IMG/VR virus record: IMGVR_UViG_2561511241_000010
Direction: 5' to 3' (one strand)
Source of the DNA: a virus
Lineage: Duplodnaviria > Heunggongvirae > Uroviricota > Caudoviricetes
Length of the DNA stretch: 37,472 bases
Each line of letters opens with the position of its first letter. Position 1 is the stretch's first letter. Below, in pieces: positions 1,332-24,963 of the stretch. Position numbers and translations under genes: made by a program. The notes under the pieces are model-generated. The model was given only the letters and a program-made list of their open reading frames with translations. It was not told the DNA's origin and made no database searches.

Positions 1332-1598
1332 ATGTTCGTTGAACTGGTTTATGACAAACGCAATGTAGAGGGGCTCGAAGGGGCCAGAGAAATTATTCTG
1401 GCCGAGCTGACGAAGCGGGTGCACCAGATTTTCCCTGACGCCGAAGTGAAGGTGAAGCCGATGCAAGCGAACGGCTTGAATAGCGATGCCAGCAAAAGTG
1501 ATCGTGAAAAGCTGAACCGCATGCTGGAGGAAATGTTTGATGAATCCGACATGTGGCTTGTGTCTGAGTTTCCGACAGTTCGCCAGGTGGGTATGTGA
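1332..1598 (+). CDS. dinI: DinI-family DNA-damage-inducible protein
   Basis: 88-aa translation has DinI-like character (acidic C-terminus ending DMWLVSEFP); GGAGG ribosome-binding site at 1322..1326; LexA boxes upstream. Confidence 0.75.
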   Translation: MFVELVYDKRNVEGLEGAREIILAELTKRVHQIFPDAEVKVKPMQANGLNSDASKSDREKLNRMLEEMFDESDMWLVSEFPTVRQVGM

Positions 1599-1640: not shown

Positions 1641-2909
1641 TTACGAACCAGATTCATTCTCCGCAGCTTCCAAAGCTTCTTCCTGTCGTTGATTCCATAC
1701 ACTGTTTTCAGGCATGTCGAGTCGCACATCGATCCAGCTATTGGCAGGAACATCTATAGGAGCCCCTTTCGTTTTAACAATTTCTCCTTCTTCGCTAAGT
1801 ATGTATTTGCGCTTAAAAAGCCGAATCGTCAGCCCACCGCTTTCTGTTTGCTCAGCTTCAACTACACCCAGTTCTCCCATTCCACCTGGGTCCATTGGCG
1901 GCAGCAGCTGCCAGCCTTCTGATGCCAGGCCTGCCGAACCAGTCAGCAAATAGATACCTACATCTAGCCGGGAAATTTTGATTCCCTCTGCCTCAGCATT
2001 AGCCGTACCGCATCCGCACCAGATAAAATCATTTTCATCAATATCTGTGCGCTGATTCTCGTTCTGAGATTTCACGATTCTGGCCACCGGCGAAGCTGCT
2101 TTCAGCGTGCCATCGGAGGCTTTAGTGGTATTTTCAGAAGTGTAAACAACTGAGCCTGGCTTCACAGACAGCATTGTTGAGAATGCATCGGTGCCATTAT
2201 TTCTTCCTGCAATCTGGTAAGAGACGGTACCACCAATCCCTGCGACACCTGCCCTGAAACGAGGAGTTCCGTTAACCATCACCGTATGAGCCCATACACT
2301 ACCAACAGTTGAAAGTCCTTCAACGGTGAAAGCGTAAGGGTTACCAGCGATACCGGCGATATTCAGGGCATTCGTTAACGTTCCTCCGCCAGTACCAAGA
2401 GCACCAAGTGCTGTTAGCGCTTCATTAGCTGTTTTCGCTCCCGTACCGCCCTGAGCGATGCTGAGAGCAGTTGTTAATCCGCTCAGGCTGGTAATGTCGC
2501 TGTTTGCCCCTTTCTTCGCCAGCGATTTCTGAGCCGGTACCGTGACGGCCACGCCGTTAATCGTGATAGTGACATCTGTAGTACCGTTCATCACATCAGC
2601 GAAGCCACTCATGTAACGCTGGTACATCGTGAACGTTTCAGCAATATCCTGTGCCAGGCCGTCAACGCTCAGGCTGTCGCTCAGAAGAATGGCGTATTTG
2701 GTTCCAGCTGGGATAGCAGGGCTTGCCGCTGGCGTAACGGTGAGACTGGTTGCGCTAACGATGGCGGTAATCTGAAAAACCTGCGCTGGACTGGTCATTG
2801 CAATAACTGTGCAGCCGTTGCGGATCAGAGAACCTGCGGCGGTAAAATTAGTACCTGTGCCGGTGATATTGTTACCACTAATAGCAATGGTGCCTGTTGT
2901 GTAAATCAT
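1641..2909 (-). CDS. Tail fibre protein
   Basis: 422 aa, Gly/Thr/Ala-rich repetitive N-terminal region typical of phage fibre shafts; last gene of the tail module; GAGGTAG ribosome-binding site. Confidence 0.6.
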   Translation of the reverse strand: MIYTTGTIAISGNNITGTGTNFTAAGSLIRNGCTVIAMTSPAQVFQITAIVSATSLTVTPAASPAIPAGTKYAILLSDSLSVDGLAQDIAETFTMYQRYMSGFADVMNGTTDVTITINGVAVTVPAQKSLAKKGANSDITSLSGLTTALSIAQGGTGAKTANEALTALGALGTGGGTLTNALNIAGIAGNPYAFTVEGLSTVGSVWAHTVMVNGTPRFRAGVAGIGGTVSYQIAGRNNGTDAFSTMLSVKPGSVVYTSENTTKASDGTLKAASPVARIVKSQNENQRTDIDENDFIWCGCGTANAEAEGIKISRLDVGIYLLTGSAGLASEGWQLLPPMDPGGMGELGVVEAEQTESGGLTIRLFKRKYILSEEGEIVKTKGAPIDVPANSWIDVRLDMPENSVWNQRQEEALEAAENESGS

Positions 2910-3035
2910 GAACTACCTCACGATAATAACGATCGTTAAAAGCGATCAATCATGTAAAATTGATCGCTCATATCAATCTGACTATTTTTTAAAATTAAAT
3001 AAAATGGAAGTTCCCGCATAAACAGGAATGTTGAA

Positions 3036-3398
3036 ATGAAACTTTTATTCGCTGCAGCGTTTTTGCTTGTGGCTGGATGTACGAACAAACACACAGATAA
3101 CGCATTCCAGATGGATTACCCGGTTGATGCCTCTCGTTTATCGCTCGGTGGTGATATTCACGTAAATATCGACTGTGCCACCAAAGAGGTGGAAGTTATT
3201 TCAGACAGTAGCAACGGAATATTCAGCCGCCATATAAAAAAAAGGTTAAGTAATATTTGCTACAATAAACCGGATAAGCTGGATGTCGTTTATCGCTTTA
3301 ATTCAGCAAAGGGCGTGAAACAAGATATGATTGCAACTCATTACCCACGAGTTCCTCCCGTGTCAAATCCCAACAAACTGAGAGATGGGGATTCTTAG
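3036..3398 (+). CDS. Lipoprotein moron, antisense to the tail operon
   Basis: N-terminus MKLLFAAAFLLVAGC is a signal peptide with lipobox; AGGAA ribosome-binding site; AT-rich upstream region; 3' end overlaps the convergent ORF 3363..4004. Confidence 0.6.
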   Translation: MKLLFAAAFLLVAGCTNKHTDNAFQMDYPVDASRLSLGGDIHVNIDCATKEVEVISDSSNGIFSRHIKKRLSNICYNKPDKLDVVYRFNSAKGVKQDMIATHYPRVPPVSNPNKLRDGDS

Positions 3399-4004
3399 CC
3401 CACGCCCCTGAAACGTCTGGCCCCAGTTGCGCTGATTATTTGAAATATATCTGCCCTGCAACTGTGATCCCGTCCACTTCAGCACTATCCCCGAATAACC
3501 GACCACCTCCCCGTCATCGCTGAGATTTCCGGGGCAGTTGTTGACCAGAATCCACGGATTAAAGCTGAGGCTCACCGATAGTGTGTTGTTTTGGAGGTCA
3601 TAGTTCGCTGGCACATCAAAGAAACCGACAACTCGGGGCATTTTTGATGCAGAAACAGCACTCCAGATGAGATTTCCGGCACTGTCGAAGACATCCAGAT
3701 ACCCGCTTTGAATTCCAATGTTACGCGCAGTGCGGATCATGCTCCCCGCGTTATCTTCAAGCAGGTCCGCACCAGGCATCCCGTATCTGTTTGCGCCAAG
3801 CTGCAGCCACCTTAATCTCCCGTCATTCCAGAATGCCTGCGGAGTGAATCCCAGGGTGCTGCCATTCCCAAATGGGCTGTCTACCTGGTAAAAACCTTTG
3901 TTGTTCACTGCGCCGAGCGTACGTTGGTCATAAAAAAGGGTGGACCTGTTTTGCGAGTCCACCAGTAATTTTCCATCGCTGTTGTAAACTTCGAATCCGC
4001 TCAT
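3363..4004 (-). CDS. Hypothetical tail-region protein
   Basis: 213-aa ORF with normal composition, coupled to the upstream ORF (4-nt overlap at 4001..4004). Confidence 0.5.
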   Translation of the reverse strand: MSGFEVYNSDGKLLVDSQNRSTLFYDQRTLGAVNNKGFYQVDSPFGNGSTLGFTPQAFWNDGRLRWLQLGANRYGMPGADLLEDNAGSMIRTARNIGIQSGYLDVFDSAGNLIWSAVSASKMPRVVGFFDVPANYDLQNNTLSVSLSFNPWILVNNCPGNLSDDGEVVGYSGIVLKWTGSQLQGRYISNNQRNWGQTFQGRGLRIPISQFVGI

Positions 4005-4303
4005 TGAAAGTTATACACCTCCACATTGAGTGTGATCGCAGGACTGCCGGTTGAGGGCAAATAGTAAGCTGTAAAACCGCCATTATAGGCGCGGCAGTGG
4101 TATTCGTTGACAGTGACGCCAGTCGACACAATTGAGATGAATGAGCCATCCTGGGTTATCCCGACGAAGGAAACGTTTTTCGACGTTTCCCCCGCAGCGA
4201 ATGTTACTGAGGTGCTTCCGATATACCGGATGGCATAATCACTCAAATCAACCGCTATGCGCCCTGCACTGTCCCAGCATTGCAACCCCTGTGGCATTAC
4301 CAT
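4001..4303 (-). CDS. Hypothetical protein downstream of J
   Basis: 100-aa ORF overlapping the J stop (4297..4303) and the next ORF. Confidence 0.45.
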   Translation of the reverse strand: MVMPQGLQCWDSAGRIAVDLSDYAIRYIGSTSVTFAAGETSKNVSFVGITQDGSFISIVSTGVTVNEYHCRAYNGGFTAYYLPSTGSPAITLNVEVYNFQ

Positions 4304-7300
4304 AACCCCATTCTGACACGCAGTACGTTATTGCTGTCATAGATACGAATGAGAGTGCTGGTTATCAGCATCCTCCCGCCCCCGGCCACGCCGTTAATTT
4401 CGAACGTTCCACTCTTATCAAGCTTCCAGCCTGCAGAACCAGCCACATAGTTATTCGACTGGATATAGTTGCCGATTTTGGCATTGCTGATGGTCCCGTC
4501 ACCGATGACCGTATCCCTGATAATGGTTTGGCCATTCTGGATAACGAACGGGAGCGTAACATTACCGCCTGCCTGGGTCATGACAGCAAAACGGTCAGCC
4601 AGGAACAGAACCTGTGACTGCATGCCCTCTGGCGTATTCTGAACACCAATGCCCATTCCGGCTGCGTACTGGTTGCCATTAGAATCAACAGCTACCTTGA
4701 TGCTGTACATTGCATTCAGGTTGTTATTGATGTCGGCTGATACCTGGCTGTTCTGGACAATATCTGCAGACTGGCCGTTAACCGTGACCTTAAGCGAGTT
4801 AATTTGCGTCGCAGACGCCTGGGTGAAGTCAGCAAGTGTCTTCGACAAGTCAGTGACATTCGCTATGTTTCCACCGGCACTGGAATCTAGGGTACGCAAC
4901 GACTCAGCGACAGCCTTACTGGCTTCGGCCATGACATTGTCGACTCGCTCAATACCGGCTTTATTATCACCATACTGAACGCTCAGAAGGTTGCGCTGGT
5001 TAACCTGTGCGAGCGTGCTGGTTATCAGCGCGATGGCATTGTTTTGAATACCACCGTTGGCCTTATCCGTTCTTGCTGCCAACTCCTCCAGGCGGGACGC
5101 CACTGACGAAGTCGTGTCTGTGACAACCTGCCGCAGCGTGGTGATATCAGCAGTGTTTTGTGAGCTGGCTTGTTCAGCTGCGTCTGCCTTACCTGATGCA
5201 GCATCAGCTTTACTCGAAGCCGAATCAGCTTTATCAGAAATGACCTGAGTACTCGCAGTGAGCTGATCAACAGCAGTTGCCCTTGCCTGAGCTTCATCTG
5301 ACAGAGCCTGCCTTACCTCGGTAATTCCCGCTTCGTTCTGCGCTGTTTTTGCCTCAAGACGGATAACATCCGTTACGCGTGCCTCCGTCTCAGTAGCGAT
5401 AACCTCCCGGAGCTGTTCGAAAGTCGCAGAGTTAGCGCCCTGTTGGGCTGTCTGGCGCACGACAACATCGGCAATAGCCAGCGCGTTGCCGATGATTGCT
5501 TCTGCTGTCTGCTTATTCGAACCTACGGCGGCAGCCAGCCCATCGGCGTTCTCCTTAATTGCTTCAGAAAACTCGGCCAGTTTCTCGCTACTGTCTACAG
5601 CACTTTCAATCAGATCCTTAAATACCTCGGAATCTTTAATCTCCTCCAGGATCGCATCGGTGATATCGGATACATCGATGCTGGCCTGACCGCGCACAAA
5701 GTCTGTATACCCTGATTCGTTGCCGCTGCGGTCCACCAGCTGCGCGCGATACCAGAAAATCTGCCCAGCCTTAAGGCCCATCTGCTGATATTTGCGCTGC
5801 GGGTAAGGCACATCGGCCAGCAGTATCGCATCGTCTTCGGTACCGGTCAGGCTGTACTGAATTTCCGTCTTCAGCGTGTCGTCGGTATTCGCCGGGAATC
5901 CCCAGTTCAGCTCGATACCAAATACAACGTTTTCAGAAGCGATGAAGCCAACCGGCTTCGGTGGGCTGCCCACTTTACCCGTCAGCGTTTTCTCTTCTGA
6001 AGAGCCCCATCCGGAAGAAATTTCTGCGGCATTGATTGCGCGCACGCGCACCAGGTAGCGCCCTGCATAAATCCCCTGGACGTCGAATGATGTGGTGGAG
6101 CTGCGCGGCACGTTAACCCAGTTCCCGTCGTTGCGGCGCCATTGCGCTTCATAGGCGATAGCGTTCTGCGCCTGGTCCCAGCTCACGCGCATGGTCTCAA
6201 CGCTGATATTTTGCTGCACCACGGAAAACGAGCTGATCACGATGTTCGAAGGCGGCGACTGGTTACCCGGCGGGATTACACTCACCGGCCGCTGGTCGAT
6301 GATGGCTCCGGTATCGATGCGGGCATATTTATCCGGGTCGTGCCATGCGCCAGTAATCGAGAAAGTGCCATCATCCTTTTCGGAAACGCTGACAACACGA
6401 TACTGCTGCGCATAGAGCTCGTCAGATTCAACCACCCAAACAGCTTCGGCCTGTGGCGTCTCACTGTATGCCGTGGTGACTGTGACTGATTCCCCGTTTA
6501 CGGCCTGAATGGTCCTGCTCTGCGACACTCCGGATGGTAAGTTGAGAATAAGGCGATCACCTGCTGCTGCATCTGCCACGCGGTCAAGTTTGATAACGCG
6601 ACCGTTAACGGCGCTGATGCGGCCGCCCATAACCTTTCCGGAAAGCAGCTCGTCTGCCACGGCGATGATGTAGCCCGGCTGCGGAATGTTGCCGTCCAGC
6701 CCGACATCAAACGAAACAACACGATCCTTGTTGTTGGTGAGAATACCCCAGCGTCCCTTTCGGTTAGCTTCTGACTGCCTGGTGCAGCCGATGGCTGTCA
6801 TTTCCAGCTGATTGAAGCCGTACCGCGCCACCAGCGCCTGCTCAAATACCGGCTCCATCGCGTCGGCATAAGCGTTCCCCGGATCTGACCATGAAACCAG
6901 TGCTGTGGTGTAGCGGCTTTTCGTGGTGCTGCTCGAATAGGTGAAGCGACCGCCAACAACGTTAGCGCGCGTGTAGCTGTAATCAACATCGCGCGGCATG
7001 TCAGCCAGGGCCACAATCTGATCCCCGCCCCAGTAGGTCATGCCACGGAAGATAGCGGCAAAATCACGCAGGACTGTGTAGGCGTCGTTCCGGTCCTGAA
7101 TGTACACGTTGCAGGTATAACGTGGTTCGGTACCGTTGCCCCCTTTGCCGTCTGGTACCATCTGATCACAATACTGGGCAACCTGATAAAGCGTCCATTT
7201 ATCAATATTCGCAGCGGTCAAACGGTGCCCGAGGCCGAACCGGTCAGAAACAACCAGATCGTAAAAAATCCACGCAGGGTTATCCGTCCATGCCCACTTA

Positions 7301-8121
7301 AACGCACCGGTCCATGTACCGCTATAAGTGCGGGTTTCAGGGTCGTAGGTATCTGGAACGCGGATAACGCGGCCGCGGGGCTCGCAGGAGATCTGAGGGA
7401 TAGAGCCGTTAAACTGGCTGGAATCGAATTCGATGTAGAGTAACGCTGTGTTTGGATATCGTAACTTGGCGTCAATCACCTCAGTGAAGCTCTGCAGCGT
7501 CATCGTGTCGCCGATCTTCGCGCTGTTGGCATCAGAGGTAATCTTAGGCAGACGTATTGTCCAGGTGCTGCCAGCCTGCGGTAAATCAATGCGGTGGCTG
7601 CGCTCATAACCAGACGTCGTTTTGCCGGTCACGCTGGTATTGAGTACCGTCTGCCATGTGCCGCCGTCCGTCTGCAGGTCAATCGCATAATTGACCGAGT
7701 AACCCACCAGATCACCGTCGTCCTCCTGTTTGAAAAGCGAGGGCCATTTCAGACGCAGGCGAACTGCTGAAAGCTGCGTATTGGTAAAGGTGCGCGTCCA
7801 TGCTGTAGCGCTTGATACCTCAGTTCCTACGCTGATTTCGTTTTCGGTACCGGGAATACCCTGAATATATTTTTGGGCCTGCGTTCCCGCGCGAAACTCC
7901 CACGTTACGCCGCTGAAGTTTTGGGAGCCGTCAGCATTCTCCAGGGCTGTTCCGTCCAAATAGATATCTTTGCCGGTTAGCTGCCCTGCAAACTCCCCTT
8001 CGCCAAGCGCAACGAGGATTTTTGCCTTCGCTACAGATTGCAGATCATCAGGCTGTTCGGTAGGGGTTCGTGAACTGGAGCTGCCGCCCTTGCGGCCCTT
8101 TAACACTTTATCTGTAGCCAT
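4297..8121 (-). CDS. J: Host specificity / central tail fibre protein J
   Basis: 1274 aa; N-terminal region resembles lambda gpJ; follows the I-K-L-M order. Confidence 0.9.
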   Translation of the reverse strand: MATDKVLKGRKGGSSSSRTPTEQPDDLQSVAKAKILVALGEGEFAGQLTGKDIYLDGTALENADGSQNFSGVTWEFRAGTQAQKYIQGIPGTENEISVGTEVSSATAWTRTFTNTQLSAVRLRLKWPSLFKQEDDGDLVGYSVNYAIDLQTDGGTWQTVLNTSVTGKTTSGYERSHRIDLPQAGSTWTIRLPKITSDANSAKIGDTMTLQSFTEVIDAKLRYPNTALLYIEFDSSQFNGSIPQISCEPRGRVIRVPDTYDPETRTYSGTWTGAFKWAWTDNPAWIFYDLVVSDRFGLGHRLTAANIDKWTLYQVAQYCDQMVPDGKGGNGTEPRYTCNVYIQDRNDAYTVLRDFAAIFRGMTYWGGDQIVALADMPRDVDYSYTRANVVGGRFTYSSSTTKSRYTTALVSWSDPGNAYADAMEPVFEQALVARYGFNQLEMTAIGCTRQSEANRKGRWGILTNNKDRVVSFDVGLDGNIPQPGYIIAVADELLSGKVMGGRISAVNGRVIKLDRVADAAAGDRLILNLPSGVSQSRTIQAVNGESVTVTTAYSETPQAEAVWVVESDELYAQQYRVVSVSEKDDGTFSITGAWHDPDKYARIDTGAIIDQRPVSVIPPGNQSPPSNIVISSFSVVQQNISVETMRVSWDQAQNAIAYEAQWRRNDGNWVNVPRSSTTSFDVQGIYAGRYLVRVRAINAAEISSGWGSSEEKTLTGKVGSPPKPVGFIASENVVFGIELNWGFPANTDDTLKTEIQYSLTGTEDDAILLADVPYPQRKYQQMGLKAGQIFWYRAQLVDRSGNESGYTDFVRGQASIDVSDITDAILEEIKDSEVFKDLIESAVDSSEKLAEFSEAIKENADGLAAAVGSNKQTAEAIIGNALAIADVVVRQTAQQGANSATFEQLREVIATETEARVTDVIRLEAKTAQNEAGITEVRQALSDEAQARATAVDQLTASTQVISDKADSASSKADAASGKADAAEQASSQNTADITTLRQVVTDTTSSVASRLEELAARTDKANGGIQNNAIALITSTLAQVNQRNLLSVQYGDNKAGIERVDNVMAEASKAVAESLRTLDSSAGGNIANVTDLSKTLADFTQASATQINSLKVTVNGQSADIVQNSQVSADINNNLNAMYSIKVAVDSNGNQYAAGMGIGVQNTPEGMQSQVLFLADRFAVMTQAGGNVTLPFVIQNGQTIIRDTVIGDGTISNAKIGNYIQSNNYVAGSAGWKLDKSGTFEINGVAGGGRMLITSTLIRIYDSNNVLRVRMGLW

Positions 8122-8829: not shown

Positions 8830-9162
8830 TCAAAGGCATGATCTGGCAGCCGTAGCCCAGTGATCGTTCCATCCTTTTGCGACGGCGTAAACTTTAACAT
8901 CGCTTCCGCCTGCTTCTGATTTATCGATATTCACCACTGAAAGGGCGCCGAAAATATCGTCTGATGCTGTTATTTTGTAACCTGACTCAGTTGGTATGCT
9001 GGAGCTTGAAGATCGAAGCTCCACCCATTTAGGGGCCAGGCATCTGTTAACCTGATCTGCACTCTTTGAAGTGTGTTCAGAAAGAATAGGCTTTTGGGAT
9101 TCGAGGGAGTTTACAGAGCAGCCAGCCAAACCAATAACTAGCACCAAGAATAGCTTTTTCAT
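8830..9162 (-). CDS. Lipoprotein inserted between tail genes K and I
   Basis: Internal start MKKLFLVLVIGLAGC gives signal peptide plus lipobox; GGAG precedes ATG 9168/9162; the longer table ORF (to 9330) would overlap K and is rejected. Confidence 0.55.
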   Translation of the reverse strand: MKKLFLVLVIGLAGCSVNSLESQKPILSEHTSKSADQVNRCLAPKWVELRSSSSSIPTESGYKITASDDIFGALSVVNIDKSEAGGSDVKVYAVAKGWNDHWATAARSCL

Positions 9163-22949: not shown

Positions 22950-23524
22950 GCGCGCCGGCGTTCCGTCCTCGGCTCGTTGTCAGGGTGACGCTCAACCGTC
23001 GGGAGGTCAGCGTGATCCACCAGCGAGTAACACGGATAAATCACCCGGCCACCGAATGCCTCACCGACGGCGTAATCAGCTGCCAGCGTTTTATTCCATG
23101 CGTTAAGCATGCGCGCCAGCCTGCCCTGAGGAGGGCTGTAACATACGCCGTGAATCAGTTTGCTTAATACGATGTGGTCACCACAGACGCGATCCGCATC
23201 CACCAGCATTCCGGCAATTTCTTTCTGATACTGCGGCGGTCGGCCGGTACCGAGATAAAAGCTCAGCATGTCGTCAGGGAAGCGCACCAGCCATTCAGTT
23301 ACCTTATCGGTGAAGCCCTGTACAGGAAGCGCGTCGTCTTCCAACACCACTACCCGGCATGTTTGCTCTGCTGCCCACTCAAGCGCACGCCGATGATTCC
23401 AGTTCGCGCCGCGGTTACCGTCATCAATAAGCAGATGAGCATCCAGCAGCGCGGTAAGTCGTTGCGCATGACCTATGCGAGAGTGATGGCCAACCACAAC
23501 AAACTTCACTTGTGTTTCCACCAT
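22934..23524 (-). CDS. Putative GT-A-fold glycosyltransferase-like protein
   Basis: 196 aa; pattern NHRRALEWAA...VVVLEDDALPV resembles the acidic-motif core of GT-A (family 25-like) transferases; overlap-coupled to both neighbours. Confidence 0.4.
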   Translation of the reverse strand: MVETQVKFVVVGHHSRIGHAQRLTALLDAHLLIDDGNRGANWNHRRALEWAAEQTCRVVVLEDDALPVQGFTDKVTEWLVRFPDDMLSFYLGTGRPPQYQKEIAGMLVDADRVCGDHIVLSKLIHGVCYSPPQGRLARMLNAWNKTLAADYAVGEAFGGRVIYPCYSLVDHADLPTVERHPDNEPRTERRRAWRLA

Positions 23525-24963
23525 GCGGCCTCCTTACCGATACCATCAGTTTTGAAAACGGTATGTACCAGGGGGCCGGTGACCAGCCTGTCAGCGAATG
23601 ACTGCGCGACAATACCGAACGCCAGCATGTCACCCACCGCGGCGCCAGCCTGTTCTTTCTTCCAGAAACGATAACTCTCTATCCGGTAGTAAAGACGGAT
23701 GATGCCGTGAGCAAACGCCATGACATCAGCGCGGGTACCGCCCAGCAGACCAGCGTTAAGCATCACATCGCCGCGGTGCGCTTCAATGAATTCTTGATAG
23801 ATACGCTCAGGATGATTCTGCTTTGCCCAGGTGTCGGCGTATGTCTTCGGTTCAGAACCGACGTAAACATTCCCGGGCTGCATTTCTTCCCACGGCGCGC
23901 GAAGCATTTCGACATCGGTACCATCTGTACACCACACGAACCGGTATTCAGGGTGATCGCGTAGGTGCTGCCAGATATGCAGCCAGCGCCGGAAGTAGAC
24001 ATTCATCTTCACGTCAGGAACGCGGTAAAGCTCAACGTCTGCCGGTGCCGTCTGTAGTTCATCCACCAGCGCGATGCGGCCACAATGTCGAAGCGAGGCC
24101 GCCCACCCGCTCAACATGTCAGGTGAGGCTACCATTCTCGTACCGCGCTGGGGGTCGGGCTGGCTGGTCAGTAGCGTAGTGATAACCACGTCGCGCTGCT
24201 GGCGGTATTCAACGTAACCAGTAAACCCGGCGTCACGACGTTCGTTGTGGATCTTCACGTTACGTTCCACCAGCGCCTGTCGGTCGGGACGCGGTACCGA
24301 ACGCTCAACGGCTTCATGCTCATCGAGAGAGTGGATCAGCTTTTCTGAACCGAAGACATCAGCGTAAGCCCACGTCGTGAGGCCAGCGTTATGAATCCGC
24401 ATGGCGAGGTCGCTGTGTTCGTACATGCCGCGACCGTAAACCGTATCGAAACCGCCAACCTTCTCGACAGCGCTACGGTGGTAATACAGCATCACGCCGC
24501 GCTGCCCGGTGTAAGCGATGTGCTTATCATCCCGGTACAGGACTGCCATATCCTTCAGCTTATTCGTCCCTGCCAGATCGAGGAACTGGTAAGCCAGGTG
24601 CGGTTCGGGTGATTCGACGTATGGCAGGTGCCAGTTATCAACGATGGGCCAGGCGTCATCGTCCCAAAGGAATAGATGCTCACATCCGGCGTCCATCAGC
24701 GCGGTTAAACTGGCGTTCTTAGAAGCAACAATGCCGAGTGATGTTTCATGGCGAAGCAGCTGCACGCCATCAGGCACTACTGCGGCAGGTTTAGAGCCAT
24801 CGTCGATAACCACCACCAGCGCACCGATGGGAAGATGTTTGGTGTGCTGCTCAATGGCACGCTTTAAAACGTCTGGCCGGTTATGGGTAGTTATGGCAAT
24901 GCCAATCCGTGACGCTGAAGCGCAAGCGGGTACAAACGGGACACCATCAATAGTGACCTGCAT
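23506..24963 (-). CDS. Two-domain protein with N-terminal family 2 glycosyltransferase domain
   Basis: 485 aa; N-terminus IGIAITTHNRPDVLKRAIEQ...VVVIDDGS...LWDDDAWP carries GT2 signature motifs; about 230-aa C-terminal domain of unknown function; no long hydrophobic segments; GTGGAGAA ribosome-binding site. Confidence 0.65.
   Translation of the reverse strand: MQVTIDGVPFVPACASASRIGIAITTHNRPDVLKRAIEQHTKHLPIGALVVVIDDGSKPAAVVPDGVQLLRHETSLGIVASKNASLTALMDAGCEHLFLWDDDAWPIVDNWHLPYVESPEPHLAYQFLDLAGTNKLKDMAVLYRDDKHIAYTGQRGVMLYYHRSAVEKVGGFDTVYGRGMYEHSDLAMRIHNAGLTTWAYADVFGSEKLIHSLDEHEAVERSVPRPDRQALVERNVKIHNERRDAGFTGYVEYRQQRDVVITTLLTSQPDPQRGTRMVASPDMLSGWAASLRHCGRIALVDELQTAPADVELYRVPDVKMNVYFRRWLHIWQHLRDHPEYRFVWCTDGTDVEMLRAPWEEMQPGNVYVGSEPKTYADTWAKQNHPERIYQEFIEAHRGDVMLNAGLLGGTRADVMAFAHGIIRLYYRIESYRFWKKEQAGAAVGDMLAFGIVAQSFADRLVTGPLVHTVFKTDGIGKEAAWWKHK

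Follow-up and report, generated by a model that had tools for sequence, protein, structure and literature searches.

A lipid-anchored TonB-like protein encoded with predicted PqqU-binding proteins in a lambdoid prophage of Escherichia coli

Two phage-encoded outer-membrane lipoproteins are known from experiment to act on a receptor from the periplasmic side. Llp, a small outer-membrane lipoprotein, binds FhuA at its periplasmic face, blocking binding of the receptor-binding protein (RBP) allosterically, and Rtp45 acts from the periplasm on LptDE (bioRxiv 10.1101/2025.07.07.663478). Both lipoproteins are encoded beside an RBP gene, carry one disulfide each and remodel the extracellular loops of the receptor. 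In small siphoviruses, a variable locus beside gpJ tracks receptor specificity, and phages IME347 and Bas10 have been shown experimentally to depend on YncD, a TonB-dependent transporter now called PqqU (PMC8594841). A 2026 preprint based on genome-wide screens found that the type of this locus tracks YncD specificity, and for two temperate phages took the structure of the locus as sufficient to assign YncD (bioRxiv 10.64898/2026.04.02.716166). The Bas10 proteins were named RBP-2, RBP-1 and SIP-1 in 2025 (Sci Adv; PMC12124388). In that work RBP-1 (QXV80560) and RBP-2 (QXV80561) were placed on the extracellular face of PqqU by AlphaFold-multimer only, and SIP-1 (QXV80559) was described, likewise from AlphaFold prediction only, as a TonB-like superinfection blocker at the periplasmic face of PqqU (PMC12124388).

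The DNA analyzed here (37,472 nucleotides, referred to as the window) begins with smpB and ssrA and continues into a lambdoid prophage of ~ 36 kb, integrated at ssrA, from E. coli ETEC1749 (NZ_CP122712). A lipoprotein ORF is located at the tail end of this prophage, and the order of genes is J-like tail tip, 100-aa ORF, 213-aa ORF, lipoprotein ORF and side tail-fibre gene (Table 1). A first-pass annotation of the window had described a 120-aa ORF with a signal peptide and lipobox that reads antisense to the tail genes, follows an AT-rich upstream region and overlaps a convergent tail-region ORF at its 3′ end, and all of this was borne out. The J-like gene, the two small ORFs and the tail-fibre gene are all on the minus strand; the GC content is 31% in the spacer upstream of the lipoprotein gene, 42% in the gene itself and 50–54% in the neighbouring genes; and the 3′ overlap with the 213-aa ORF is 36 nucleotides (3363..3398), leaving the last 11 lipoprotein codons dual-coding with the RBP-1 gene. 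The side tail-fibre gene is treated here as a mere neighbour downstream of the module, and we do not claim it as part of the system.

Table 1. Coordinates of the lipoprotein gene, its parts and its neighbours in the window.
Feature	Position	Strand	Remarks
Side tail-fibre gene	1641..2909	-	PHROG 1591 tail fibre; Pfam Phage_tail_C_2
AT-rich conserved control region	2910..3035	.	126 nt, 31% GC
120-aa lipoprotein gene	3036..3398	+	Lipid-anchored homologue of IsaakIselin SIP-1; PHROG 25729
Signal peptide (aa 1-14) and lipobox Cys15 (LVAG-C)	3036..3080	+	Read from sequence; pattern match
TonB C-terminal-domain-like core (aa 26-90) with YP motif (Y28, P29) and two conserved cysteines, Cys47 and Cys75	3111..3305	+	
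C-terminal tail (aa 93-120) with conserved motif DMIATHYPRVPP	3312..3395	+	AF2: disordered, pLDDT <50
RBP-1 homologue, 213 aa, predicted PqqU-binding protein	3363..4004	-	Bas10 RBP-1 (bas10_0025, QXV80560): 47% identity, E 1e-66; DUF8377 family, a label taken from precomputed matches on homologues and not on the window protein
RBP-2 homologue, 100 aa	4001..4303	-	Bas10 RBP-2 (bas10_0026, QXV80561): 36% identity, E 2e-17
J-like tail-tip protein, T1/Drexlerviridae type	4297..8121	-	40% identity to Bas10 J over the full length; NCBIfam lambda_TipJ match

The lipoprotein ORF was found to be a real gene. It is annotated by RefSeq as WP_000770541.1, and the 120-codon reading frame is intact in seven phages or prophages, namely the window, HK639, LMessi, CharmingMan, Eeyore, Flotzy and LLS. 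Substitutions between the window and Flotzy number 20, 7 and 67 at the first, second and third codon positions, respectively, and this concentration at third positions is indicative of a gene under purifying selection. In the records of the reference phage HK639 the 120-aa gene is unannotated and an opposite-strand ORF of 52 aa (HK639_26; NC_016158 23839..23997, corresponding to 2936..3094 on the minus strand of the window) is listed instead. Since the 52-aa frame is interrupted by in-frame stops in Eeyore and lacks a start codon in both Flotzy and LLS, it does not represent a gene and is an apparent mis-annotation, and the annotation of HK639 is corrected here.

The lipoprotein matched PHROG 25729, a family to which no function is assigned (E 1e-69), and a search of 5.8 billion proteins recovered 51 relatives, all of them unnamed and mainly from Enterobacter, Kosakonia, Klebsiella, Franconibacter and E. 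coli. No Pfam family was found for the lipoprotein (E <= 0.1) or for the RBP-1 and RBP-2 homologues, and none of the three proteins was matched by the PADLOC models for anti-phage defence.

The N terminus of the protein, MKLLFAAAFLLVAG followed directly by Cys15, constitutes a signal peptide with a lipobox, in which G14 and C15 are at least 90% conserved among 42 homologues. The lipobox cysteine is at the same position in the prophage form and in most of its close relatives, and none of these carries Asp at position +2. The residue at +2 in the window protein is Thr, meaning that the Asp inner-membrane retention signal is absent, and the sequence predicts that the lipoprotein is sorted to the outer membrane. 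Only 12 residues separate the lipoprotein signal from the folded domain, and the prophage form should be tethered to the outer membrane by this linker of ~ 12 residues, an anchorage of the kind seen in Llp and Rtp45.

The mature protein comprises 106 aa with an α/β fold. An AlphaFold2 model built from 42 sequences contained a confident core (aa 31-90, pLDDT 83-94), in which a helix, two strands, a second helix and a third strand are followed by a disordered tail. Fold searches with this protein returned TonB C-terminal domains only, and the top matches included TonB in complex with FhuA and with BtuB (reference structures for the domain are PDB 2GRX chain C, 2GSK chain B, 1XX3 and 7ZC8). At the sequence level, the family profile reached TonB/FusB C-terminal domains in the PDB (7ZC8) at E 0.004 and the NCBIfam TonB model at E 0.003, the profile alignment spanning the YP motif and the helix, strand and helix that follow it. 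An HMMER scan of 1.84 billion representative sequences recovered 21 proteins only, and among these was a protein with four TonB_C domains (P0066; Pfam E 2e-73), matched at E 5e-8. The hhalign comparison with E. coli TonB was weak (probability 12%), the lipoprotein itself fell below threshold against Pfam TonB_C (PF03544), and its relatives P0060 and P0061 reached only E 0.13-0.17 against that model. The sequence links to TonB are therefore weak one by one, and from the evidence of fold and profiles together we conclude that the lipoprotein core is a diverged TonB C-terminal domain, a result reached independently of the published prediction for SIP-1.

The protein differs from TonB in lacking the N-terminal transmembrane helix and the proline-rich spacer, in being tethered, by prediction, to the outer and not to the inner membrane, and in having two conserved cysteines. 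With the membrane anchor and spacer of TonB missing, coupling to ExbB/ExbD is not available and energy transduction would be impossible. The two cysteines, Cys47 and Cys75, are at least 90% conserved and are also present in the secreted relatives of the protein.

The C-terminal tail, predicted to be disordered, is itself highly conserved, with M98, A100, T101, P104, R105, V106, P107 and P108 near-invariant, and a motif D-M-I-A-T-H/Q-Y-P-R (3324..3350, aa 97-105) is retained from the lipoprotein through to the secreted forms of Drexlerviridae. It may be that this C-terminal motif folds only on its target. A resemblance between KQDMIAT in the tail and the TonB box of PqqU, EQTMIVS, was considered as possible mimicry and set aside, as 463 of 2000 shuffles of the window protein scored as well and the Bas10 protein has no such match.

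The lipoprotein is homologous to SIP-1 of Bas10, also called phage IsaakIselin (bas10_0024; 33% identity over 80 aa, E 5e-16, BLASTP), which belongs to the same PHROG 25729 (E 6e-29), and the two proteins share the TonB C-terminal-domain-like fold, the conserved cysteine pair and a motif D-M-I-x-x-Q-x-x-R-x-P. They also share their partners, RBP-1 and RBP-2, beside a J-like tail-tip gene (Table 1). The C-terminal end of J is strongly conserved between the two phages, and presumably this end carries the separate receptor-binding proteins. There are, however, differences between the two systems. The window protein has a lipobox and is predicted to be an outer-membrane lipoprotein, whereas SIP-1 has a cleavable SPase I signal (..PLNAMA-LNV) with no lipobox and is predicted to be a soluble periplasmic protein. 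In the window the gene runs opposite to the RBP genes, shares its 3′ end with the RBP-1 gene and has its own conserved upstream region, and it is carried by a temperate lambdoid prophage of the HK639 type, while SIP-1 belongs to a lytic Drexlerviridae phage. The kind of system present in the window has thus been described before, by prediction only, and the window holds a lipid-anchored, separately controlled, temperate-phage variant of it.

The first-pass annotation had placed the lipoprotein alongside Cor, Llp and Lom. It is not related to them: there was no Pfam or PHROG link to these proteins and no match to Llp or Rtp45 in the fold searches. The resemblance to Llp of T5 and to Cor of phi80, HK022, N15 and T1 is one of type and position, since each is a small lipoprotein of the outer membrane whose gene adjoins receptor-recognition genes; the window protein is unrelated to them in fold and in sequence (no match in PDB or BFVD searches), and Llp and Cor are directed at FhuA while the predicted target here is PqqU. 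Rtp45 of phage Rtp also comes from the variable RBP locus, where its gene has the same place downstream of J, but is an unrelated protein of ~ 6 kDa, and its target LptDE is not a TonB-dependent transporter. The Ail_Lom domain, a β-barrel of ~ 200 aa, was not found in the mature 106-aa protein by the Pfam search.

The conservation of the locus was explored across phage and prophage genomes. The 213-aa protein of the window is 42-44% identical to proteins of other phages that carry the DUF8377 label, and the 100-aa protein is 31% identical to its counterpart. A tblastn search of phage genomes located the 213-aa protein in 59 records and relatives of the lipoprotein in 44. Most of the records are Drexlerviridae that infect Escherichia and Klebsiella, and they include IME347, IsaakIselin (Bas10) and JohannLBurckhardt, the last two being BASEL phages, and both Bas10 and IME347 carry all three genes of the module. 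Linkage of the lipoprotein gene or its relative to RBP-1 and RBP-2 beside a J-like gene was observed in the window and at 12 other loci.

Three arrangements of the genes were distinguished. In the first, found in Drexlerviridae-like phages, the genes form a same-strand operon convergent with J, and on several phage contigs this operon was seen to consist of a gene of ~ 100 aa, a DUF8377 gene of ~ 215 aa and a gene for a secreted relative of the lipoprotein of ~ 110 aa. In the second, found in lambdoid prophages of Escherichia, Franconibacter and others, the lipoprotein gene is antisense, as in the window, and this layout recurs in divergent prophages (47-50% identity) of Franconibacter and on metagenomic contigs. 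In the third, found in KLB22-like phages, the domain forms the C terminus of bitopic proteins of 196-271 aa encoded in the early region, 16 kb from the RBP genes. That the domain and the RBP genes occur together in three layouts, including an unlinked one, points to a functional tie to this RBP type and not to mere hitch-hiking. The lipoprotein gene had initially been read as a stray insertion in the tail-fibre region, and it is instead one third of a conserved RBP-2/RBP-1/SIP module that is also present in strictly lytic Drexlerviridae. The module is rare in E. coli (three of 5426 complete genomes), and pqqU is present in 5413 of the same 5426.

Several individual loci are worth recording. 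The bitopic forms (P0058, P0060, P0061 and P0063) consist of a cytoplasmic N-terminal part and one membrane helix ahead of the domain, with loci at L015 2482..3252, from Klebsiella phage KLB22 MVRL022, and at L008 1819..2529. The genome of Franconibacter pulveris CP188026 contains two prophages (L018 at 3.02 Mb and L019 at 3.68 Mb) with an identical 111-aa lipoprotein and the same J/RBP-2/RBP-1 layout. In phage LLS (L006 2959..6029), the tail-fibre gene adjoining the module lies in an invertible segment with a Fin-type invertase, and RBP-2, RBP-1 and the lipoprotein are unchanged. In a prophage remnant (L021 7001..8672), the J gene, truncated to 137 aa, adjoins head genes at a junction, and the RBP-2, RBP-1, lipoprotein and tail-fibre genes are intact; the exact lipoprotein sequence of this remnant (P0053) was present on 19 contigs.

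Taken with the homology to SIP-1, these data suggest that the lipoprotein is probably an exclusion factor specific for PqqU and matched to the RBPs of the phage that encodes it, with PqqU as the receptor of the prophage itself. Placing the lipoprotein within a conserved receptor module narrows the expected target to one, PqqU/YncD, and away from FhuA, BtuB, LamB or OmpC. We infer PqqU as the receptor, binding of the lipoprotein to it, exclusion and expression in the lysogen from the gene's own promoter; for binding and for the exclusion of PqqU-dependent phages, the published AlphaFold-multimer model for the Bas10 protein is the basis of the proposal. A literature search found no report of a receptor for HK639, LMessi or related phages.

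In the mechanism proposed, Sec-dependent export, lipidation of Cys15 and Lol sorting would leave the protein anchored in the outer membrane's inner leaflet and suspended by its short tether. The TonB-C-terminal-like domain would then dock at the periplasmic face of PqqU/YncD, on the side of the plug and TonB box, and PqqU would be locked or remodelled in such a way that the RBP-1/RBP-2 complex could no longer bind or trigger infection from outside. The lysogen would be protected in this way and, during lytic growth, progeny phage would be kept from adsorbing to debris. Several points speak against the proposal. The individual sequence links to TonB are weak, and the promoter match described below is at chance level. 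A lysogen in which PqqU was blocked constitutively would forfeit PQQ uptake, and the replication helicase gene of the prophage is annotated as frameshifted, meaning that the element may be defective.

The fold of the protein also invites a broader reading, in which it would act not on PqqU alone but as a general decoy, capturing TonB boxes across many transporters or those carried by incoming group B colicins. Such a decoy would give broad protection against phages and colicins that depend on TonB, together with reshaped iron and cofactor uptake. The TonB C-terminal domain binds TonB boxes by strand addition, the TonB-FhuA and TonB-BtuB complexes are among the top structural matches, and overproduced periplasmic TonB fragments inhibit TonB-dependent functions. 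However, the domain is strictly paired with a single RBP type, DUF8377/RBP-1, in every context examined, which makes a broader decoy less likely; in addition, phages use unrelated exclusion proteins for different receptor types, and shutting down TonB-dependent uptake as a whole would burden the lysogen. A general decoy is accordingly judged unlikely.

The first-pass annotation had regarded the gene as a cell-envelope moron expressed in the lysogen, by comparison with lipoproteins that act in superinfection exclusion or are associated with virulence. The general idea holds, in that a small tail-region lipoprotein with a probable exclusion role is present and its low GC content, own orientation and promoter-like site fit a moron-like unit; the relatives named for it and the stray insertion do not. 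A moron with no connection to phage receptors is a separate matter. Such a protein could be associated with peptidoglycan or the outer membrane and could contribute to serum resistance or envelope stability, as has been discussed for Bor and Lom. The low GC content, orientation and lipoprotein signal of the gene would agree with this, as would its location near the attachment site beside a DinI-family gene and its retention in a remnant prophage from which most tail genes are gone. Nevertheless, strictly lytic phages carry anchor-free homologues in their RBP operon, a setting in which a role in host fitness makes little sense, and there is no similarity to the Bor or Lom families, so that a pure fitness role appears very unlikely.

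It could also be that the protein helps the phage's own infection or assembly, as a periplasmic factor for RBP function, DNA entry or, in the manner of a spanin, lysis. Its relatives are co-transcribed with the RBP genes in Drexlerviridae, and o-spanins are outer-membrane lipoproteins too. An exported protein, though, cannot join virions that are assembled in the cytoplasm, and a newly made periplasmic protein is no aid to the infection that delivers its own gene. As regards lysis, the cassette of the prophage (holins, a GH19 endolysin and small downstream ORFs) lies ~ 20 kb from the lipoprotein gene; unlike an Rz1-like o-spanin gene, the lipoprotein gene has no i-spanin or lysis-cassette neighbour and is flanked by tail genes, and KLB22 has separate annotated spanins. 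A helper role is thus considered highly improbable, and exclusion at PqqU is the reading retained here.

The region upstream of the lipoprotein gene was analyzed for signs of separate control. Among the seven phages, no part of the module is better conserved than this spacer, which has a mean pairwise identity of 92-97% against roughly 75-85% for the flanking coding sequence. It contains a promoter-like element, CTGACT-16-TAAAAT, at 2978..3005 on the plus strand and an invariant AGGA Shine-Dalgarno sequence at 3024..3027, 8 nucleotides before the ATG. A promoter scan returned 2 sites against the 1.9 expected from shuffled sequences, which is chance level, and it is only the conservation of the site that is informative; on that basis, expression in the lysogen from the gene's own promoter is plausible. 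Further upstream are a perfect 9-bp inverted repeat, GCGATCAAT-N8-ATTGATCGC, at 2942..2967 and a palindrome, AACGATCGTT, at 2928..2937. Three GATC sites lie just upstream of the promoter-like element, and hairpin and T-run sites are present on the minus (late) strand of the spacer. The inverted repeat was sought elsewhere in the window as a repressor operator and found to be unique, and no link to the immunity region therefore emerged. These elements may be read as an operator, as an element sensitive to Dam or as a terminator on the late strand.

A further scenario combines the anchor with this control region. In it, the lipid-anchored form, under highly conserved, GATC-rich palindromic control, would be a switchable decoy and a competitor of host TonB at PqqU, with other TonB-dependent transporters as possible further sites. 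Lysogens would give up uptake of PQQ or of nutrients and become immune in return to phages and colicins that depend on TonB, perhaps in only part of the population. We regard this scenario as distinctly unlikely.

The reading of the lipoprotein as a PqqU-specific exclusion factor allows a concrete and testable prediction, namely that PqqU/YncD is the receptor of lambdoid phages of the HK639 type and of their prophages in Escherichia, Enterobacter and related genera. It also describes one three-gene receptor module that moves between lytic T1-like and temperate lambdoid phages. Among receptor-directed exclusion lipoproteins that act from the periplasmic side, a TonB mimic would be the third structural solution, after Llp/Cor and Rtp45. 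If the reading is true, lysogens would be resistant to phages that depend on PqqU and might no longer take up PQQ with high affinity, which bears on the choice of receptors in phage therapy and on the cost of carrying a prophage.

Other genes of the prophage were noted in passing. The tail operon contains a second lipoprotein gene (8830..9162, minus strand, 110 aa), with an N terminus of MKKLFLVLVIGLAG followed directly by the lipobox cysteine, between the K-like C40 peptidase and I-like genes. It was considered as a possible Cor, an assignment that was dropped as its sole family match is PHROG 914, which has no assigned function; relatives are found in LMessi, Fraca, phiKO2 (gp19) and a Serratia phage. 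Two other genes, both from the RefSeq annotation, are likely accessory genes: the DinI-family gene at 1332..1598 on the plus strand, which adjoins the ssrA attachment site, and a family-2 glycosyltransferase gene at about 23505..24962 on the minus strand, which lies between the lysis and terminase genes.
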